Below are positions 2,247 through 18,277 of a stretch of DNA of 64,000 nt, piece after piece. A program made the position numbers and the translations under genes. A model generated the notes under the pieces. It was not told the DNA's origin, did no database searches, and was given only the letters and a program-made list of their open reading frames with translations. The DNA is from an uncultured Candidatus Saccharibacteria bacterium (GTDB taxonomy: Bacteria > Patescibacteriota > Minisyncoccia > Phycocordibacterales > UBA2100), in the NCBI GenBank assembly GCA_964594735.1, contig CAZQMS010000001.1, positions 62,523-126,522 of the forward strand. The letters run 5' to 3'. The stretch's first letter is position 1. Each line of letters opens with the position of its first letter.

Positions 2247-5200
2247 CGACTGGCACATTCAAGAAGCCGAAGAAAGTCCTACTGCTCGGTTCGGGCGGTC
2301 TGCGCATAGGACAGGCAGGTGAGTTTGATTACTCGGGCTCGCAAGCTATCAAGGCGATGAAAGAAGAGGGCATCGAGATCGTTCTTATGAATCCCAACAT
2401 CGCGACGGTGCAGACAGACACCGGACTTGCTGACAAAGTCTATTTTCTCCCGCTCACGCTCCCCTTCGCGACGGATGTGATTGCCAAAGAAAAACCGGAT
2501 GCAATATTCCTCTCCTTCGGCGGCCAGACGGCCCTCAATCTCGGACTCGAGCTCGAGGAGAAAGGTGTGCTCGAGAAACATGGCGTGCGTGTCCTTGGCA
2601 CACTCGTCAAAACAATTCGCGACACCGAAGACCGCGACCTATTTGTGGATCGCCTCAAAGAGATAGGAGTATTCACCGCCAAGAGTCGCGCCGCTCGCAC
2701 GGTCGAAGACGCGGCGCGCGCTGCAAAAGACATAGGCTACCCGGTCATGGTGCGCGCGGGATTTGCACTCGGCGGCGAGGGCTCTGGCATGGTCGCGTCG
2801 GAAAAAGAGCTGAGGGCGAAGCTCGGCGAGGTTTTCCGCAACGTGCCACAGGTGCTGATAGAAGAGTACCTCGGTGGATGGAAAGAGGTGGAATACGAGG
2901 TCGTACGCGACAGCGCCGACAACTGCATTACCGTCTGTAACATGGAGAACATCGACCCAATGGGCATCCACACGGGCGAGAGCATCGTGGTCGCCCCATC
3001 GCAGACACTTTCCAATCGCGACTACCACATGCTCCGCGAAGTTGCTCTCAAGACTATTCGGCACCTCGGCATCATCGGTGAGTGCAACATCCAGTATGCG
3101 CTGCATCCCACGACCGGCGAGTACCGCGTCATCGAGGTCAACGCCCGCCTCTCCCGCTCATCCGCTCTCGCATCAAAAGCCACGGGGTATCCACTCGCCT
3201 TCGTCGCCGCAAAGCTCGGCCTCGGCTACAACCTGACCGATATCAAAAACTCGGTGACAAAGAAGACAATTGCGTGCTTCGAGCCGGCACTCGACTATGT
3301 CGCGCTCAAAATGCCGCGCTGGGACTTGGCGAAGTTCGATCCGCCGACTGGCGGACGCGCACTTGACCGCATCGGCACGGAGATGAAAAGTGTCGGCGAG
3401 GTCATGGCTATAGGCCGCAGCTTCGAGGAGGCGCTCCAAAAGGCTATTCGTATGCTCAATACGGGCGCGACAGGATTTACCGCCCAGAAGAACGGTAACT
3501 TCAATCTCAAGAATCCTCGCAAAGAGATTCACGAGCCGACGACGCGCCGCATTTTTGCTATCGCGCAAGCGATGCGCGAAGGAGTCTCATCGAAACGCAT
3601 TCACGAGCTATCGCGCATAGACATGTGGTTTCTCGCGAAAATGGAGCGCATCATACGCCTCGAGAAGCAACTTCGTCGCGGTGCGCTCACGCGCGAGCGC
3701 ATGCTCGAGGCCAAGCGGGCCGGTTTTTCTGACCTACAGTTGGCGCTCATCACTCGTTCTACCGAGCACAAGGTGCGAGCGCTTCGCAAAAAACTCGGCG
3801 TACTGCCGTCGGTCAAGCAGATAGACACGCTCGCCGGTGAATTCCCCGCCAAGACCAATTACCTCTACCTCACCTACCACGGGAGCGAAAACGACACGGT
3901 GCGGGGCGAGAACCAGATGATGGTGCTTGGCTCCGGCCCGTACTGCATTGGCTCATCAGTAGAGTTCGACTGGTCGTGCGTTCAAGCCCTCAAGACATTG
4001 AAAAAGGAAGGGTACGGCACAATCATGATCAACTCGAATCCTGAGACAGTCTCGACAGACTACGACATGTCAGACCGACTCTACTTCGACGAGCTCTCGC
4101 TGGAACGCATTCTCGACATCATCGAATTCGAGAAGCCGAAATCCGTCGTCGTCTCGACCGGCGGTCAGATTCCCAACAACCTTGCGCTGCAGCTCCATAA
4201 GGCGGATGTCTCCATACTCGGCACGTCGCCTGAGAACATCAATCGTGCCGAGGACAGGCACGTGTTTTCTAAGATGCTCGACAAGCTGAGTGTCGACCAG
4301 CCCGGCTGGGCAGAGCTCTCGACACAGGGCGCGGCTCGCAAGACGGCACAAAGCCTGGGCTACCCTGTGCTCGTGCGCCCGTCGTACGTGCTTTCAGGTG
4401 CAGCAATGCGCGTAGCCTATGATGAAAAGGAGTTGCTTCAATTCCTCAAGAAGGCGGCGAGCATATCTGATGACCATCCCGTAGTCATATCGAAGTTTAT
4501 CGAGAACGCCCGGGAAATTGAAATCGACGGCGTCGCCAAGAAGGGAAAGCTCGTCGTCTATGCGATTACAGAGCATGTGGAGAACGCGGGTACGCACTCG
4601 GGAGATGCGACAGTCGTGCTCCCGCCTCAGCGTACGTACCTCGAAACTATTCGGCGCGCCAAAGAGACGGCAAAGCTCATCATCAAGGAGCTCGACATCA
4701 CGGGGCCCTTCAACATCCAATTCCTCGCCAAAGACAACAAAATCCAGGTCATCGAATGCAACCTCCGCGCATCGCGCAGCTTCCCCTTCGTCTCAAAAGT
4801 CACTGGCTACAACTTTATCGACATAGCGCTCAGAGCTATGCTCGGGCGTGATGTATCCGGCGAGTACCGCACACTAGAACTCGATACCGTCGCAGTGAAA
4901 TCGCCGCAATTTTCTTTCAATCGCATCAAGGGCGCAGACCCGCGCACCTCTGTAGAGATGGCGTCGACAGGCGAAGTCGCGTGCTTTGGCGATTCGTACG
5001 CCGAAGCGCTCATCAACTCTATGATGGCGGCCGGTTTCAGATTGCCCAAGAAGCACGTACTCGTCTCTCTCGGCGGAGTTGAAAACAAGGTGAAGCTCCT
5101 GCCCGCTATTGAGAAGCTGCGCGACATGGGCTTTGTGTTCTACGCCACGGAGCACACCGCGGATTTCCTCGCGAAGCATCGCATCAAGAGCAAAAAAGTA

Positions 5201-5648: not shown

Positions 5649-8327
5649 TCAAGACTTGAACGCTTTCCCCTTCTTGAGCACTTTCTTCAAATAGTAGCCC
5701 GTGTGTGAGCCGTCGGTTTTTGAGACTTCCTCCGGTGTGCCGGTCGCGACTATCTGACCGCCACGCTCTCCACCTTCCGGCCCCATATCGACGAGGTAAT
5801 CGGCGCACTTGAGTACGTCGAGGTTGTGCTCGATAACCACCACAGTGTTTCCCCTCTCGACAAGCTTTTGCAGAATCTGAACGAGTTTCGCAACATCGTC
5901 GTAGTGGAGTCCGACCGTCGGCTCATCGAGCAGGTAGATGCTTTTTGAGATGTGCGGTCGATAGAGCTCCGAAGCAATTTTCACGCGCTGCGCTTCGCCA
6001 CCCGAAAGCGTCGTCGCACTCTGGCCGAGTTCGAGGTACGAGAGCCCTACGTCGGCGAGCGACTCGAGTCTATCCGCGATGGCAGGGATGTCTTCGAAGA
6101 ATTTGAGGGCCTCCTCGACGGTCATCGAGAGCACGTCGTGAATGCTCTTCTTTCGGTACTTCACCTCGAGCGTCTCTTTCATAAAGCGCTTGCCATTGCA
6201 GACATCACAGGTCACATACACAGTCGGAAGGAAGTGCATCTCGACGGCGACAAGCCCGTTGCCTTGGCACGCCTCGCACCGCCCGCCCTTTACGTTGAAT
6301 GAGAATCGCCCCGGTCCCCACCCGCGTGCGCGCGCCTCTTCACTCATCGCAAAGAGGTCGCGGATGTGCGTCCATGCACCCGTGTACGTCGCAGGGTTCG
6401 AGCGCGGCGTGCGGCCGATGGGCGACTGATCAATAAGGATGGCACGACCGAGGTATTCGGTACCGGTAAACTCTTTGACATTGTAAATCTTCGCGGTGCG
6501 GAAACGCTTATCGAAACGCGCCTGTAGATTGCGATGGAGCATCTCGTAGAGAAATGTCGATTTACCCGAGCCGGAGACACCCGTGATGCCGACGAGCTTG
6601 CCGAGTGGGATGTCCACATTGAGATTCTTGATGTTGAATTTGTTACCACCGCGAATCTTTATCTTTCCTTTATCAGATGTGCGGCGATTCTCGGGCACCT
6701 CTATCGCTGCTTCCTCGCGCAAGTATGCGAGCGTGCGCGAGCCAGACTTGTTGGTCTTTGCAGTGAGCAAGTCATCGAGCCACCCCTGTGCCACGATGTG
6801 GCCACCATGCGTACCAGCTCCCGGGCCGATGTCTACGATGTAATCGGCGGCGTATATCGTGTCTTCGTCGTGCTCGACGACGAGCACTGTGTTGCCGAGG
6901 TCTCGGAGGTGCTTGAGCGTCTCAATGAGCTTGTCGTTGTCGCGCTGGTGTAGACCGATGGTCGGCTCGTCGAGCACGTAGAGTGCACCCACAAGACCGC
7001 TCCCCAGCTGCGATGCGAGGCGAATGCGCTGCGCTTCACCACCGGAAAGCGTGTTGGCCTTTCTGTCGAGCGTGAGGTATTCGATGCCCACATTGAGCAT
7101 GAACTGCAATCGATTCGTGATTTCCTTGATGACGGTACGCGAAATCTCCTGCTCCTTTTTCGTGAGCTTGAGGTCTTCGAAAAACTTCATCGCATCCTCG
7201 ATGGAAAGCGACGCAAGTTTGACGATGTTTGTGCCCGTAGCGGGTCCATTGTGCGCTGTGGCTCCGACAGCTGGCGGATGTACCTTACCGAGAAACACAT
7301 TAAGCGCTTCCGGCCGGAGGCGCGCACCGGAGCACACCGGACAGGCCTCGTCGCTCCAGAGGTACCGTGTACCGAGGCCGTTGCACTCCGGGCATGCTCC
7401 GTATGGGGAATTGAATGAAAAAAGGCGCGGCTCTACTTCTGGGAACGAGAAGCCGTCGTACGCGCACATAAATTTGGCCGATACGATATGCGCTTCGCCG
7501 CTCGGCTCGGTAATACGGACGAGGCCGTCGCTCTCATGCAGTGCACGCTCTATCGCTTCCGAAGCGCGCTCGAGCGAGCCCTTGGCGTCGTCGTTGAACT
7601 CCGAGACAAAAATTTCATCGACAATGATGTCAATATCATGCCGGTCGTTTTTCGAGAGCACGATACGATCACGAAGCGACTTCTCTTCGCCGTCTATCAC
7701 CGCCCTTTCGAAGCCTTTGTTCAGCATGTCGTAGAGCAGCTGGTAGTATTCGCCTTTACGACCCACGACCATAGGAGCCGAGATGCGCACTTTATCGGTC
7801 GAAATACTTGCAGTAAGTTTCCCTGGCCGGGCAGGCTTCCCTGTCACCTTTTTTAATTTGCTCGCCTCCTCCACAACCTCGAGTACTCGCTCGAGTATCT
7901 CTTCGTTGGTAAGCTTCTTGACCTCACGACCGCACTGTGGACAGTGTGGGTGGCCGACACGCGCGTAGAGGACGCGGAGGTAGTCGTATATTTCGGTGAT
8001 GGTCGCCACTGTGGAGCGTGGATTGTTGGAGCGACTCTTTTGGTCGATCGAAATGGCGGGAGAGAGCCCTGATATCTCGTCTACATCTGGCTTTTGCATT
8101 TGACGGAGAAATTGGCGTGCGTACGCGGAAAGCGATTCTACGTACTTGCGCTGACCTTCGGCAAATATGGTGTCGAAAGCGAGCGACGACTTGCCGCTTC
8201 CCGAAAGCCCCGTAAAAACCACCATCTTCCCGCGCGGCATCTCGACCGTCACGTTCTTGAGGTTGTGCGTCCGAGCACCTTTTACGATGATTTTTCCCGC
8301 ATCGAAGTTGTTTTTGTCGTCTGCCAT
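5649..8327 (-). CDS. uvrA: Excinuclease ABC subunit A (UvrA)
   Basis: Two ABC ATPase modules (GLSGSGKSS, GVSGSGKST, LSGGEAQR x2) and zinc-finger Cys clusters. ATG at 8327 (MADDKNNFDAGKIIVKGARTHNLKN) is the canonical UvrA N-terminus; the ORF track extends it to 8405. Confidence 0.95.
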   Translation of the reverse strand: MADDKNNFDAGKIIVKGARTHNLKNVTVEMPRGKMVVFTGLSGSGKSSLAFDTIFAEGQRKYVESLSAYARQFLRQMQKPDVDEISGLSPAISIDQKSRSNNPRSTVATITEIYDYLRVLYARVGHPHCPQCGREVKKLTNEEILERVLEVVEEASKLKKVTGKPARPGKLTASISTDKVRISAPMVVGRKGEYYQLLYDMLNKGFERAVIDGEEKSLRDRIVLSKNDRHDIDIIVDEIFVSEFNDDAKGSLERASEAIERALHESDGLVRITEPSGEAHIVSAKFMCAYDGFSFPEVEPRLFSFNSPYGACPECNGLGTRYLWSDEACPVCSGARLRPEALNVFLGKVHPPAVGATAHNGPATGTNIVKLASLSIEDAMKFFEDLKLTKKEQEISRTVIKEITNRLQFMLNVGIEYLTLDRKANTLSGGEAQRIRLASQLGSGLVGALYVLDEPTIGLHQRDNDKLIETLKHLRDLGNTVLVVEHDEDTIYAADYIVDIGPGAGTHGGHIVAQGWLDDLLTAKTNKSGSRTLAYLREEAAIEVPENRRTSDKGKIKIRGGNKFNIKNLNVDIPLGKLVGITGVSGSGKSTFLYEMLHRNLQARFDKRFRTAKIYNVKEFTGTEYLGRAILIDQSPIGRTPRSNPATYTGAWTHIRDLFAMSEEARARGWGPGRFSFNVKGGRCEACQGNGLVAVEMHFLPTVYVTCDVCNGKRFMKETLEVKYRKKSIHDVLSMTVEEALKFFEDIPAIADRLESLADVGLSYLELGQSATTLSGGEAQRVKIASELYRPHISKSIYLLDEPTVGLHYDDVAKLVQILQKLVERGNTVVVIEHNLDVLKCADYLVDMGPEGGERGGQIVATGTPEEVSKTDGSHTGYYLKKVLKKGKAFKS

Positions 8328-8419
8328 ATCAATGGTTTTGACCCCCGCGCTGGCGCAAGGGGTTGTATAGCCCCGCAGAGTTTTACTCTGGCTGGGCAGA
8401 GGCACTATATCGCATTTTG

Positions 8420-8448
8420 TTGACTGTATCCATTTGCACCGGTATCGT
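8420..8448 (+). promoter_or_regulatory. Candidate sigma70 promoter (TTGACT, 17-nt spacer, TATCGT) in the uvrA-divergent region, driving ORF 8471..8788
   Basis: Hexamers read directly; GGAGG RBS at 8461-8465 precedes the ATG at 8471. Confidence 0.4.
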
Positions 8449-8470
8449 CCTTTCAGCAGCGGAGGTATCT

Positions 8471-8788
8471 ATGAAAGCTATATATGTGTCTCGCGTGGAG
8501 AGCCGGGACGGCGATTTCGCCGTGTTCCATGAACATCCGTTGCCGGTCGATGAGGAGTGGGACGCGCAGGTCTGTCGAAGGCACTACCGAGCCTTTGAAC
8601 TCTCGCTGAGCGATGAGGGCGAGAACGTTCGTGGCCCCAATTGGTACGTCCTGACAGGCGTGCCGTTTGGGCTTCGCACCGCCGATCTGTTCTTCGTCGC
8701 CCCATCTGACCACGCAGCGAAAGACTTAGCAGTGAAGCAGGAGTGGGCGGCCTGTCGACTCTACCGGTGTGAAGAGTGCGCACCATGA
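8471..8788 (+). CDS. Hypothetical protein (105 aa) with C-terminal CxxxxxCEEC motif
   Basis: Good SD (GGAGG, 5-nt spacer). Sits in the gap between divergent uvrA and convergent murB. No family recognised. Confidence 0.5.
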   Translation: MKAIYVSRVESRDGDFAVFHEHPLPVDEEWDAQVCRRHYRAFELSLSDEGENVRGPNWYVLTGVPFGLRTADLFFVAPSDHAAKDLAVKQEWAACRLYRCEECAP

Positions 8789-15750: not shown

Positions 15751-16452
15751 CTATACGGCCATAGCGCGAATGGCGAGCCGTACGGCAGGACACTTCATAT
15801 ACCGCTCGCGAGTTTGTTGGTCAACGTCATCAAGGGGTAGGGCCAGCTCCTCCATGGTGTCGATGTGAAATCTGGCAGCGTGGGTGATATCAACGAAGTC
15901 ACTCAGCGGCCTATGATAATCAGTCAGACGTGAACCCCACGGCGCCGTCACCGACATCCATCGCCTCTTCAGATAGTCGAACCCGGGCTCAAAATTGCGT
16001 AACGGATGCGTCACGACGTACACCAGCCGCGAACCGGATTTCAGTTGCTCGCGAAGTTTCGCAATTGCCAAGAAGAGCTGTTCGTTGTCGAAGCATTCAA
16101 ACAACATGTTCGCGGTCACGAGGTCGTAGCCCCCTGGCAGATCGAGATGGCGAACGTCTTGCTCCTTAAACGTTGCGCCTGGAAGCTTCGCGCAAGCAAT
16201 GGAAAGCATCTTTTCGCTTACGTCCACGCCAGTGACGTTGGCCGGATTCAGTCCGCACTCAACAAGCCATCGCGTCAGGCGACCGGTGCCACAGCCCGCG
16301 TCCAGCAACTTCGCTGACTCGTGGATGAACGGAAGTAGCAATCGGCGAAAAGCTGGGGCTTCTACGTATGTCCACGTCGGCGAACTAGCGGCGAAGGCAT
16401 CGAATGCCTCAGCTTCAGCGTTGTACAGATCACTTTGAACTGTGTGTTGCAT
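15751..16452 (-). CDS. Class I SAM-dependent methyltransferase
   Basis: LDAGCGTGRLT motif I; ATG at 16452 is preceded by AAGGAGG at 6-nt spacing. The ORF track extends to a GTG at 16476. Confidence 0.8.
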   Translation of the reverse strand: MQHTVQSDLYNAEAEAFDAFAASSPTWTYVEAPAFRRLLLPFIHESAKLLDAGCGTGRLTRWLVECGLNPANVTGVDVSEKMLSIACAKLPGATFKEQDVRHLDLPGGYDLVTANMLFECFDNEQLFLAIAKLREQLKSGSRLVYVVTHPLRNFEPGFDYLKRRWMSVTAPWGSRLTDYHRPLSDFVDITHAARFHIDTMEELALPLDDVDQQTRERYMKCPAVRLAIRAMAV

Positions 16453-16513
16453 GTGCGCCCTCCTTGCTAGCAGCACACTACCCTCAATTTCTTACCCTCA
16501 CAAGTCGCCGCCT

Positions 16514-16545
16514 CTATTACAGTGTTTTGCAAAACACTGTAATAG
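16514..16545. promoter_or_regulatory. 32-bp perfect palindrome ctattacagtgttttgcaaaacactgtaatag; candidate operator upstream of the methyltransferase promoter
   Basis: Perfect dyad, checked base by base. Core TTTTGCAAAACACT is shared with the site at 17482-17503. It lies ~11 nt upstream of a candidate TTGTGA, 17-nt spacer, TAGTGT promoter. Confidence 0.5.
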
Positions 16546-16590
16546 CAATTGGCGCACGAGTTCCGCGAAACGTGCACACCTCTAGTGTGC

Positions 16591-16629
16591 ATAAAAAGTT
16601 AACGGCCGGCTTCCCGAAAGAAGCCGGCC
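16591..16629 (-). terminator. Intrinsic terminator after the secreted-protein gene (ggccggcttc-ccgaaa-gaagccggcc + TTAACTTTTTAT on the minus strand)
   Basis: 10-bp GC stem plus U-tract, 22 nt downstream of the stop at 16652. Confidence 0.6.
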
Positions 16630-16651
16630 GATTTCGCGTCCGTGCTGGCAA

Positions 16652-17383
16652 CTACCAGCGCAACGTCGGACCTGTCCACGCGACGAAGCCCGTGTAGCGC
16701 TGGTCGCCAGCCGCGTAGCTCGTGTGGTGCATGAAATATCGCGCGCCAAGGTTCCACGTGAGCTCTTTCGTGACTGTCCACGAGCCAACCACGTCGAACC
16801 GCGTGTTCCACCCAGCACTGTTGCCGTACAGCGGCGTGGCATAGACCGTCCGCACGGCAGACGAGAGCGTAAAAGTCTCGTCGACCTTCCACGCGTGACG
16901 CAGTCCGAGCTCAAACACCGTGCCAGGATCAGCGTTGAACGGCACCACCTGCTTGAGAGACGCGTAAGGCGTGATTGTGTGAGCGCCGTGCTTGATGTCG
17001 TAGCTGACCGTCACAAACGGCTGCACCACGTCATCGTAACTGCGCGCCTGCGGCGGCAGGCTGAAGTACGATATGCCCGCCGTTACATTGACCAGAGCTG
17101 CACGGAAATCACAGGCCGCCGTAAGGTCGATCTCGGAGTAGTTACCCCCGAGGTGGTCATTGAAGGCGCGCCAGCCCCAGACATTACCCCAGCACCCACT
17201 CGGCGTATGACGCCCTGTGAAGCTGGCCTGATGACCAGCACCGTCGTGCACCTTTTTGCCGAGATCGCCGAGCACATAGCTCGACCAGGTGCTGGTCTCG
17301 AGCGTATGGTTGAACTGCGCAGTCGCCGGCGACACGCCGAGCATCAGCGCGACGAGCGGGAGAATCAATTGAATGGCTGCCAC
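16652..17383 (-). CDS. Secreted beta-strand-rich Trp/Tyr-rich protein with signal peptide; possible beta-barrel (MipA/OmpV- or CopB-like?); ends ...GFVAWTGPTLRW
   Basis: GTG at 17383 is preceded by AGAGGGGG at 6-nt spacing and gives the signal peptide MAAIQLILPLVALMLGVSPATA/QF. Alternative ATG at 17428. The track starts at a TTG at 17440. Alternating hydrophobic pattern with an aromatic C-terminus. Confidence 0.55.
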   Translation of the reverse strand: MAAIQLILPLVALMLGVSPATAQFNHTLETSTWSSYVLGDLGKKVHDGAGHQASFTGRHTPSGCWGNVWGWRAFNDHLGGNYSEIDLTAACDFRAALVNVTAGISYFSLPPQARSYDDVVQPFVTVSYDIKHGAHTITPYASLKQVVPFNADPGTVFELGLRHAWKVDETFTLSSAVRTVYATPLYGNSAGWNTRFDVVGSWTVTKELTWNLGARYFMHHTSYAAGDQRYTGFVAWTGPTLRW

Positions 17384-17481
17384 GGCAACCCCCTCTTTTA
17401 TCTGCGGCTCATGACCGCACTGCGGCATACCGTGCCACAATGTCCATATATAGTCAACCTCATGTCCCTCGCGTATCTATA

Positions 17482-17503
17482 CTAGTCTTTTGCAAAACAC
17501 TAG
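17482..17503. promoter_or_regulatory. 22-bp near-perfect palindrome ctagtcttttgcaaaacactag (1 mismatch); second copy of the TTTTGCAAAACACT operator motif
   Basis: Lies between the msrA stop and the start of secreted-protein gene 16652..17383; shares a 14-nt core with 16514-16545. Confidence 0.4.
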
Positions 17504-17509
17504 AATGGA

Positions 17510-18052
17510 TTATTGCCTTACAAGCTCCGCGAAGCGTTTCCGAACTTTCTCCACTTTGGGCTCAATAACGAGCTGGCAATATGGCGCACTTGCGTTGTTC
17601 TTGAAGTAGTCTTTGTGGTAGTCCTCGGCGGGATAGAAAGTATCAAGTGGCAGAATCTGTGTAACGACGCGCGTGCCATCGGTAAGCGAATCTTGAATAC
17701 CTTTGGACACACGCTCGGCCGTCGCCTTCTCTTCGTCAGTCGAGTACAGAATTACTGAGCGATACTGCTCCCCCACATCGGCACCTTGCCTGTTCGGCGT
17801 CGTCGGGTCATGCGAGCCGAAAAAAACTGTGAGCAGGTCCTCGTACGAAATTACCGCCGGGTCGTAGGTCACGCGTATCACCTCAGCGTGCCCTGTTGCT
17901 CCTGTACTAACTTGTTCATACGTTGGTGCGGCTTGTAGTGAGCTTGTCGAACCACCGGCATATCCCGGCTCTACCTTGCTCACGCCCTTCAACATCGCAA
18001 ACACCGCCTCCGTGCACCAGAAGCATCCACCACCGAAAACTGCCGTCTGCAT
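17510..18052 (-). CDS. msrA: Peptide methionine sulfoxide reductase MsrA
   Basis: 180 aa; GGGCFWC active site at the N-terminus. Confidence 0.95.
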   Translation of the reverse strand: MQTAVFGGGCFWCTEAVFAMLKGVSKVEPGYAGGSTSSLQAAPTYEQVSTGATGHAEVIRVTYDPAVISYEDLLTVFFGSHDPTTPNRQGADVGEQYRSVILYSTDEEKATAERVSKGIQDSLTDGTRVVTQILPLDTFYPAEDYHKDYFKNNASAPYCQLVIEPKVEKVRKRFAELVRQ

Positions 18053-18058
18053 CCAGTC

Positions 18059-18095
18059 ATTATACAGAAACGGCTCAACACGTGTTGAGCCGTTT
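18059..18095 (-). promoter_or_regulatory. msrA promoter/operator: TATAAT located 6 nt upstream of the ATG (leaderless-type), plus a 28-bp perfect palindrome aaacggctcaacacgtgttgagccgttt (18068-18095) over the -35 region
   Basis: Minus strand reads ...aaacggctcaacacgtgttgagccgttt-ctg-TATAAT-gactgg-ATG. The palindrome was checked base by base. Confidence 0.45.
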
Positions 18096-18239
18096 AGCCA
18101 TTCAATGGGACGGACTTCAGCGAGATTTAACCTTGCTGGATTTTACAACTTCGAGACCACGGGCTATAGAATATGGTTGCGATGGTAAACGGCTCACACC
18201 ATCAAGACCGCGCGGGCGCGCGACTTTGATGGGTAGAGC

Positions 18240-18272
18240 GAAGCCGCGGCGAGGTAAGCCTCGCCGCGGCTA
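18240..18272 (-). terminator. GC-rich hairpin (agccgcggcgagg-taag-cctcgccgcggct) immediately downstream of the 76-aa ORF; putative terminator lacking a clear U-tract
   Basis: 13-bp perfect stem, 6 nt after the stop at 18278. Confidence 0.4.
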
Positions 18273-18277
18273 CTTCT

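Follow-up and report, generated by a model that had tools for sequence, protein, structure and literature searches.

Two palindromes beside msrA in a Patescibacteria contig as candidate operators of an ArsR-type winged helix-turn-helix protein

The palindromes and the genes around them

The stretch analysed here, called the window below, comprises 64,000 nucleotides from an uncultured Candidatus Saccharibacteria bacterium (assembly GCA_964594735.1, contig CAZQMS010000001.1, positions 62,523 to 126,522), and this report concerns two related palindromes in it, S1 and S2, which we read as candidate operators of a small DNA-binding protein of the ArsR type. The local gene order, all on the minus strand, is lysyl-tRNA synthetase (LysRS), a 76-aa open reading frame (ORF), msrA, a gene for a beta-rich protein, a methyltransferase gene, Zincin_1, tyrosyl-tRNA synthetase (TyrRS) and TGT, and the layout of methyltransferase, secreted beta-rich gene and msrA given by the first-pass annotation of this DNA agreed with the ORFs and Pfam matches. 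S2 (17475..17510) begins at the final base of the stop codon of msrA (peptide methionine sulfoxide reductase; 17510-18052, Pfam PMSR, E 1e-59), and its centre lies ~65 nt upstream of the called ATG of its candidate target, the gene for the 258-aa secreted beta-rich protein (16652-17428). An intrinsic terminator on the minus strand (16603-16630; 12-bp stem with 9 GC pairs, T-run) separates this gene from S1, which lies beyond it, and from the gene that is the candidate target of S1. The latter encodes an S-adenosylmethionine-dependent methyltransferase (15751-16452, Pfam Methyltransf_25/11/12), its ATG is preceded by the Shine-Dalgarno sequence AAGGAGG, and the centre of S1 is situated ~77 nt upstream of that ATG. 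Both palindromes, to which no strand was assigned, are intergenic, and neither overlaps a recognisable −35 or −10 element.

An inverted-repeat search of the window returned the palindrome of S1 at 16514-16545 as two 16-nt arms with 100% complementarity and no spacer, in agreement with the 32-bp perfect palindrome that had been claimed there, and the 36-nt family motif enclosing it extends over 16512..16547. S2 had been described as a 22-bp near-perfect dyad at 17482-17503; it is indeed a palindrome with the shared core, but it is longer than described, the search giving arms at 17475-17495 and 17490-17510 (21 nt each, 86% complementary), so that S2 is an imperfect palindrome of ~36 bp (17475-17510) belonging to the same family as S1. 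The core common to the two sites is AGTSTTTTGCAAAACACT. In the 64 kb, the shared 14-mer gave four strand-hits at the two sites where chance would give 0.27, the 18-mer AGTGTTTTGCAAAACACT, allowing three mismatches at most, matched twice, again at S1 and S2, where 0.01 was expected, and the half-site AGTGTTTTG was found at S1 and S2 only. With a 36-nt weight matrix built from the sites of related genomes (information ~48 bits, of which the core bits are inflated by site selection, the unselected flanks alone holding ~16 bits), S2 was the best position of the window at 53.5 bits and S1 reached 42.5 bits, both within the range of the motif family, while the next position scored −25; neither the mismatch search nor the matrix detected weaker sites of the motif in the window. 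Both arms of S1 have A at ±11, a base that is rare in the family (1-2 of 126 half-sites), so its arms agree with each other also at positions that differ from the consensus. The two sites are 963 bp apart.

The two dyads had been put forward as evidence for one shared regulator, but they are not independent of each other, since their similarity runs past the palindromes into msrA and both are copies of a single junction of msrA 3' end and palindrome. Directly upstream of S1, on the minus strand, lies a remnant of an msrA 3' end (16548-16573, encoding RFAELVRQ) that aligns with the 3' end of the intact gene (17512-17537) with 19 identities in 27 (p~6e-6), and the duplicated unit formed by msrA end and palindrome measures ~61 nt at S1 and at S2. 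The remnant shares eight codons with the real msrA end, and all six of the six nucleotide differences are synonymous. The remnant therefore diverged while it was part of a different, functional msrA, and its truncation is recent.

A motif family linked to a small ArsR-type gene

The family was collected by an exact-pattern scan with YAGTSTTTTGCAAAASACTR using one genome per species, which yielded at least 118 loci. About 103-105 of these belong to Patescibacteria or to unclassified metagenome-assembled genomes (MAGs) and carry an extended palindrome of ~32-36 bp and roughly 40-48 bits, whose consensus reads yCTATkSYAGTSTTTTG in the left half and CAAAASACTRSmATAGr in the right; the taxa include Kaiserbacteria, Paceibacterota, Parcubacteria, MAGs labelled 'Saccharibacteria' and similar groups. 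Many loci came from groundwater sites of the Hainich and Rifle type. Conservation of the TAT/ATA blocks at ±13-15, which the search pattern did not include, is 90-98%. Nine loci were singletons in unrelated phyla without the flanking arms, where our arithmetic gives a chance expectation of 9-17. Because extra sites within the 8-kb blocks around the loci were rare, the regulator's own pair described below aside, we put the number of sites per genome at around ten. None of the at least 118 loci had a homologue of msrA or of the methyltransferase nearby. Literature searches with the sequence and for regulators or palindromes of the candidate phyla radiation (CPR) or Parcubacteria found no description of the motif, the known paper on the Patescibacteria LexA regulon not being covered by them.

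Some loci merit a separate remark. Four (L003, L054, L061 and L085) come from one 'Roseicyclus sp.' MAG, CAYWTM01, in which the same 20-mer core, CCAGTCTTTTGCAAAAGACTGG, is flanked by hairpins of the CCTTGCAAGG type and occurs in several copies; this element is unrelated to the arms of the Patescibacteria motif. The full motif of the Patescibacteria type was present in a 'Gammaproteobacteria' MAG (L084) and an 'Omnitrophica' MAG (L091), the former with a left flank identical to that of a Patescibacteria locus (L057) and the latter with a copy in-frame in a MutY-like gene, and both probably reflect recent transfer or the mis-binning of a CPR contig.

At many loci the sites occurred in pairs 288-311 bp apart, enclosing a gene for a winged helix-turn-helix (wHTH) protein of 90-93 aa, for which a protein from a Kaiserbacteria MAG (P0002) served as the reference. 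Against Pfam the enclosed protein scored 27-32 bits for HTH_5 (cut-off 22) and 27.5-27.7 for HTH_20 (cut-off 27), its nearest solved relatives were HlyU, ArsR-family proteins, CadC and CzrA, with AspA as a weak match (E~0.007), and the Pfam and PDB matches together identify a wHTH of the ArsR/SmtB type. The family counts at least 795 clusters at 90% identity, 75-90% identical to the query, and the source databases name these proteins only generically, as wHTH or ArsR-family regulators. The expectation that a wider search for the motif would lead to an autoregulated regulator gained strong support, as the palindrome brackets this gene in 100-104 of 110 copies, with the upstream core present in 100 and the 3' core in 104. 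A LexA box as explanation was made unnecessary by this link of the palindrome to the ArsR-type gene. The association was also seen from the protein side, in 80 metagenome loci chosen by protein similarity with six peptide seeds, where the upstream site was present in 67 of 79 and the 3' site in 72 of 79; one of the six seeds is itself encoded by the palindrome, which makes the count for the 3' site, and for that site only, mildly circular.

The placement of the two sites around the gene was highly regular. The 3' core lay at the identical codon position in 101 of the 104 copies, encoding a terminal ILVFCK(R/T/K)L and stop within the last ten codons, and the only conserved cysteine of the regulator, in the C-terminal VFCK, has its codon in the centre of the palindrome. 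The centre of the upstream site was found 29-36 nt before the ATG in 64 of 100 copies (mode, 30 nt). In most of 40 distinct promoters with a spacing of 29-33 nt, a TAnnAT hexamer (TAAAAT, TAGAAT, TACAAT and others) stood exactly 6 nt before the ATG and began at the edge of the palindrome, so that in most copies the palindrome spans −49 to −13 of the regulator's predicted leaderless promoter. As predicted from sequence, this is the classic geometry of auto-repression.

Scores over 1.14 Mb of related loci were bimodal, without a tail of eroded copies, and the low scorers proved to be other perfect palindromes. Alongside the main class, A, these variants comprise class B (TCTAACRTTTTGCAAAAYGTTAGA), class C (TCTAGCTTTTTGCAAAAAGCTGTA), class D (AGCATTTTGCAAAA.GCT) and class E (core TTCTTGAGAA), and they flank diverged paralogues of the regulator (L186, L190, L178, L028, L168, L185 and L170), each variant being changed on both arms and identical upstream and 3' of its gene. 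The wing residues differ with the class, G-(R/K) in class B proteins and G-(S/P/T) in class A. Such concerted change of arms and protein is what a symmetric protein–DNA pair predicts, but it would equally fit a transposase with its ends, and a mobile unit stays compatible with it. At the degenerate positions 6 (G/C) and 10 (C/T) the arms varied independently (observed 0.58 and 0.59, against 0.59 and 0.55 expected), with mutual information 0; the site thus combines two-fold symmetry with half-sites that are conserved independently of each other. These patterns argue for recognition by a protein rather than as a hairpin, and for selection rather than decay.

Two further observations concern the same data. 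Across the family, positions 11-12 showed some dependence between arms (mutual information 0.12-0.35 bits), for which homogenisation of the arms or preferences of sub-classes are possible causes. Two paralogous regulators were found side by side or in one contig at L186 (2800-4850), L028, L165 and L170, and L186 has class C sites at 3174/3460 and class B sites at 4509/4807, which suggests orthogonal pairs of regulator and site inside one cell.

What the sites may do, and what else they could be

We favour the reading of S1 and S2 as two copies of the operator of this small ArsR/SmtB-type wHTH protein of 90-93 aa, and put its probability at about two in three. That the palindrome as such is the binding site of the wHTH protein appears highly probable from its co-occurrence and co-variation, in related genomes, with one gene for a DNA-binding protein and from its autoregulatory placement there. 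A protein conserved across Patescibacteria of the Paceibacteria/Parcubacteria type would recognise the two-fold symmetric site of ~32-36 bp and, given the length of the site, would bind as a symmetric assembly of one dimer or of two; the length is compatible with two dimers also when set beside the 12-2-12 sites of SmtB and CzrA. Binding to the upstream copy, at −49 to −13 of the leaderless promoter, should auto-repress the regulator gene, whose final ten codons contain the downstream copy. In the organism studied here, a regulator encoded outside the 64-kb window would bind S1 and S2 and would couple expression of the beta-rich and methyltransferase genes to whatever signal the regulator responds to.

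The proposed system resembles the ArsR/SmtB repressors (SmtB, CzrA, CadC and the non-metal HlyU/BigR) in pairing a small wHTH protein with a palindrome over its own promoter, and it departs from them in several respects. In the 110 sequences inspected, neither the alpha3 CXC, looked for in the ELSVEDISERL region, nor the alpha5 ligand pattern D/H-x-H...H-x-x-E was seen; the absence of these metal-ligand motifs would place the regulator in the non-metal branch of the ArsR family, if it senses any signal. No metal or sulfur genes are linked to the sites or to the regulator, the site measures 32-36 bp and holds at least 40 bits, a second copy lies inside the regulator's own last codons, and conserved copies occur in unrelated housekeeping genes.

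Several observations weigh against the favoured reading, all of the evidence for which is computational. The earlier statement that no regulator gene adjoins the two genes holds for the whole 64-kb window, in which tblastn with three regulators matched only peptides encoded by the palindromes themselves. The likeliest transcription starts are ~50-60 nt downstream of the centres of S1 and S2, and no −10 box follows either site, unlike the regulator's own promoter; with this offset simple promoter occlusion is not evident here, and the position of the sites could serve activation, upstream promoter elements, looping across the 963 bp, or nothing. The regulator gene has no conserved neighbour at 107 loci, and the layout of site, gene and site resembles a mobile unit too. 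Furthermore, by our arithmetic a genome of ~1 Mb with ~10 sites would need ~17 bits per site against the at least 40 bits found, an excess that is unusual for an ordinary operator and of which a simple regulon model gives no account; nor does such a model explain the apparently recent arrival of so long a site at this locus.

The relatives of the locus point the same way. A syntenic locus (L200, 70-83% protein identity to the window) has the order LysRS, an unassigned gene, msrA, beta-rich gene, Zincin, TyrRS and TGT, with msrA directly followed by the beta-rich gene and neither palindrome nor methyltransferase. In L201 a methyltransferase homologue starts 27 nt after msrA, and in L202 a methyltransferase is followed by an insertion sequence (IS) element and then Zincin, in both cases again without the palindrome. 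The closest relative, L203 (GCA_964654205.1), has flanking genes of 88-97% nucleotide identity and an msrA of only ~80%, and no S site was found in its 21 kb. Methyltransferase homologues in the relatives thus adjoin msrA or Zincin_1 without a site, and the placement of the motif at the promoters of the supposed targets is not kept in L200, L201, L202 or L203; the proposed control of these two genes is not conserved. Because of these site-free relatives, the missing regulator, the missing −10 box and the offset of ~50-60 nt, the evidence that S1 and S2 control the methyltransferase and beta-rich genes is weaker than that for the identity of the binding site. What survives of the first-pass idea of one dimeric factor co-regulating both genes is a symmetric site of a transcription factor that is autoregulated, as its link to the regulator and the co-varying variants suggest, and not a conserved control of the two genes.

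The history of the locus was read from the same comparison. The interval between msrA and Zincin is, to judge from these genomes, a variable island and a hot spot of recombination. In L203 this slot (7840-8515) is occupied by a gene for a 206-aa Y1-transposase-like (RAYT-like) protein and by a different palindrome, TTGGAGGTTGAACCTCCAA, present three times; its two outer copies lie across the stop codons of msrA and the transposase gene, giving both proteins an LGG end, and TTGGAGGTTGAACCTCCAA is absent from the window. The most economical reading of our locus is that the unit of pseudo-msrA end, S1 and methyltransferase gene was imported from a genome with a junction of msrA, site and methyltransferase, and it is the methyltransferase unit that looks like the import. 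The beta-rich gene as an inserted cassette was ruled out, as L200 has the same gene at the same position. Both sites would probably have come by recombination or horizontal import of DNA with a ready junction of msrA 3' end and site, and an origin of both by local point mutation is not favoured.

Placement across the family was judged by a test for depletion in open frames together with cases verified by homology. Sites were depleted in long open frames (at least 60 flanking codons), 19% lying in them against 53% of random positions, and many were situated 18-75 nt ahead of a long ORF, where a −10 box frequently stood 4-8 nt before the ATG. The genes downstream were varied (Formyl_trans_N six times, PurT twice, TatD three times, SHMT, methyltransferases, PemK and others). 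A further point against the favoured reading is that at least 17 of 126 sites (~14%) lay in-frame inside conserved genes, recurring at the same position in purN in five genomes (L018, L046, L058, L071 and L079), in a gene for a MutY-like glycosylase in four (L030, L087, L091 and L107), and in two genomes each in the genes for PyrC (L005 and L021), TatD (L016 and L114), an IscS-like protein (L020 and L051) and TsaD (L024 and L074). The first-pass annotation had named as fatal to its proposal either a random distribution of the motif or its membership in a repetitive extragenic palindromic (REP) family present in coding regions too; this came true in part, 14-19% of sites being intragenic, but these are in-frame and conserved, and no known REP family matched.

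The in-frame sites were always translated as Y-x-S-(V/L)-L-Q-(N/K)-T-x-I. In alignments of PurN and TatD this decapeptide matched a native helix of equal length in homologues without the site, so the in-frame copies are not insertions, and the same asymmetric variant occurred in four of the five orthologous purN copies, a pattern that points to vertical inheritance under selection at the DNA level. In one genome each the site was found upstream of purN (L039) or tatD (L103) instead of inside it, and at the internal position of the L039 purN 22 of 23 nt are identical to a class E site. That the site of purN and tatD is inside the gene in some genomes and upstream in others argues, on sequence grounds, that the genes themselves and not just a piece of DNA are the targets. 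Protein-binding sites kept within coding sequence by selection on the DNA are familiar from lac O2 in lacZ and from parS in spo0J/parB, the latter in the gene of the binding protein itself; unlike these, the protein here is neither LacI- nor ParB-like, and the site dictates a conserved C-terminal peptide, ILVFCKxL.

A broader reading, which we consider unlikely but worth stating, is that the wHTH protein and its palindrome of ~45 bits form an undescribed DNA-recognition system of the whole clade and more than a regulon. It would gather up the sites in essential coding sequences and in the protein's own C-terminal codons, the orthogonal classes and the movement with flanking DNA, and the system may have a genome-organising role, act as a roadblock-insulator or be a domesticated palindromic element.

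Close to this stands the view that the palindrome is a binding site of the wHTH protein with an architectural or segregation function, comparable to parS/ParB, Noc-NBS, MatP-matS or the AspA centromere, or an insulating roadblock, S1 and S2 being landmarks. We hold it to be improbable. The combination of roughly 40-48 bits with about ten copies per genome would suit such a role, as would the upkeep of sites in-frame in housekeeping genes and in the gene of the binding protein (parS likewise lies inside spo0J) and the location of S1 and S2 away from core promoters. AspA of the Sulfolobus plasmid pNOB8, an ArsR-like centromere binder of ~90 aa whose target is a palindrome preceding its own gene, was among the weak PDB matches, a similarity that is marginal; AspA has ParA/ParB partners, whereas neither a ParA-like gene nor any other conserved partner was seen by the regulator gene at the 107 loci. 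The precision with which the upstream site matches a leaderless promoter, moreover, argues for control of transcription, at least of the regulator gene, and intergenic DNA immediately ahead of gene starts shows a strong enrichment of sites.

A selfish or domesticated mobile palindrome, of a REP/REPtron-like, miniature inverted-repeat transposable element-like or Rickettsia palindromic element-like kind, with the wHTH as its associated gene and with the copies in the window as passengers without a regulatory role, is a doubtful explanation as well. The layout of a gene between two copies of a dispersed palindrome, some copies of which are in-frame, mirrors the REPtron and recalls the Rickettsia elements, the regulator gene lacks conserved synteny, and S1 travelled with a piece of a foreign msrA. 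Absence from close relatives implies a recent gain or loss, and a site of 40-50 bits would be too long to arise quickly by point mutation. The locus of L203 even has a genuine RAYT-like unit in the slot corresponding to that of S1 and S2, but its palindrome over the msrA and transposase stop codons is a different one. Against mobility, the 92-aa wHTH has no nuclease, transposase or HUH/Y1 domain and so is not a RAYT. REPs are species-specific and high in copy number, while the present motif is low in copy number, with two copies in the 64 kb and extra sites rare per 8-kb block, lacks a tail of decayed copies, and is the same sequence across many candidate phyla, kept over class-level lineages alongside a protein that is 75-90% identical. 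In contrast to the Rickettsia elements, which add a peptide, the copies in purN and tatD add no length to the protein, and being orthologous and of one asymmetric variant they suggest vertical inheritance under selection.

It is very unlikely that the palindromes are core sites of a tyrosine/Xer-like or integron-like recombination that mark the boundaries of cassettes, these being the beta-rich gene in the window and, at other loci, the wHTH gene. The sequence admits a reading with a 6-bp centre, TTGCAA, and an inverted arm of 11 bp on either side, direct repeats with the palindrome, 963 bp apart, flank one gene and its terminator, L056, L082, L111 and L140 have arrays in which sites stand between small genes, and the interval between msrA and Zincin varies in relatives. 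However, no recombinase is linked to the sites in the 107 regulator loci, the repeat runs asymmetrically into the coding sequence of msrA as fits homologous exchange, the beta-rich gene is ancestral at its position in L200 without sites, a fully palindromic crossover would lack directionality, and the length-neutral copies within genes are hard to explain on this view; the site, being symmetric, also has none of the GTTRRRY boxes of attC nor a recombinase cluster nearby, and so differs from both attC and the Xer dif site.

Least likely of all are hairpins of RNA or single-stranded DNA that act as an msrA terminator, attenuator or stability element, for although S1 would fold as RNA into a strong 14-bp hairpin (−24 kcal/mol, z −6.2) and each copy comes after an msrA 3' end, the one at S1 being a remnant, this reading was rejected on the weak folding of S2 (−8.1 kcal/mol, z −1.1), the lack of a U-tract after either copy and of both copies from the scan for intrinsic terminators, arms that do not co-vary at degenerate positions and so conserve half-site sequence rather than pairing, the many copies upstream of leaderless genes that would go untranscribed, and the absence of a match for the palindromes among the Rfam covariance models.

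A large part of bacterial diversity falls within the Patescibacteria/CPR, hardly any of which have been cultured and whose tiny genomes encode very few regulators, and to our knowledge no regulator–operator pair from them has been characterised. With the wHTH protein as the candidate regulator, the analysis yields a testable pair: a protein of ~92 aa, a consensus of 32-36 bp, a defined promoter architecture and natural specificity variants in classes A-E, and with it an entry point to the almost unexplored gene regulation of these bacteria. For an autoregulated factor of the ArsR type, an operator in its own coding end, in-frame copies in genes, very high information and orthogonal classes are atypical, and the excess of information, the stop-proximal operator and the in-frame copies raise the question of how such sites are kept up and spread in streamlined genomes. 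The beta-rich and methyltransferase genes would be candidate, lineage-specific additions to the regulator's network.

Other features near the sites

The beta-rich protein has ~130 remote homologues of ~245 aa, none of which was retrieved by a word-indexed protein search. These homologues rule it out as an orphan, and the absence of any similarity to msrA rules out a degraded msrA copy. Two of ten remote homologues scanned matched Gcw_chp (PF09694), which we take to be a family of predicted outer-membrane beta-barrel proteins, and the C-terminus of the protein is aromatic, ending in TLRW. Genomes of the Patescibacteria type are usually thought to lack an outer membrane, and the likeness to Gcw_chp is odd in such a genome.

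No tRNA genes were found in the window. On the plus strand at ~18140-18275, within the 225 nt that separate the 76-aa ORF from msrA, a promoter-like sequence (TTTACA-17-TATAGA) has a strong intrinsic terminator (18242-18271) ~100 nt beyond it, and the region, which had no Rfam match, may give rise to a small antisense or independent RNA. L203, a close relative, lacks this region and has 3 nt between LysRS and msrA.

The predicted promoter of msrA is TCAACA-18-TATAAT, and as its −10 box stops 6 nt before the ATG the msrA transcript is probably leaderless. The −35 element and spacer of this promoter are overlapped by another perfect palindrome, of 28 bp (18068-18095, halves AAACGGCTCAACAC and GTGTTGAGCCGTTT; RNA hairpin of −19.6 kcal/mol, z −5.3), which could be a separate operator or the terminator of the gene upstream of msrA.

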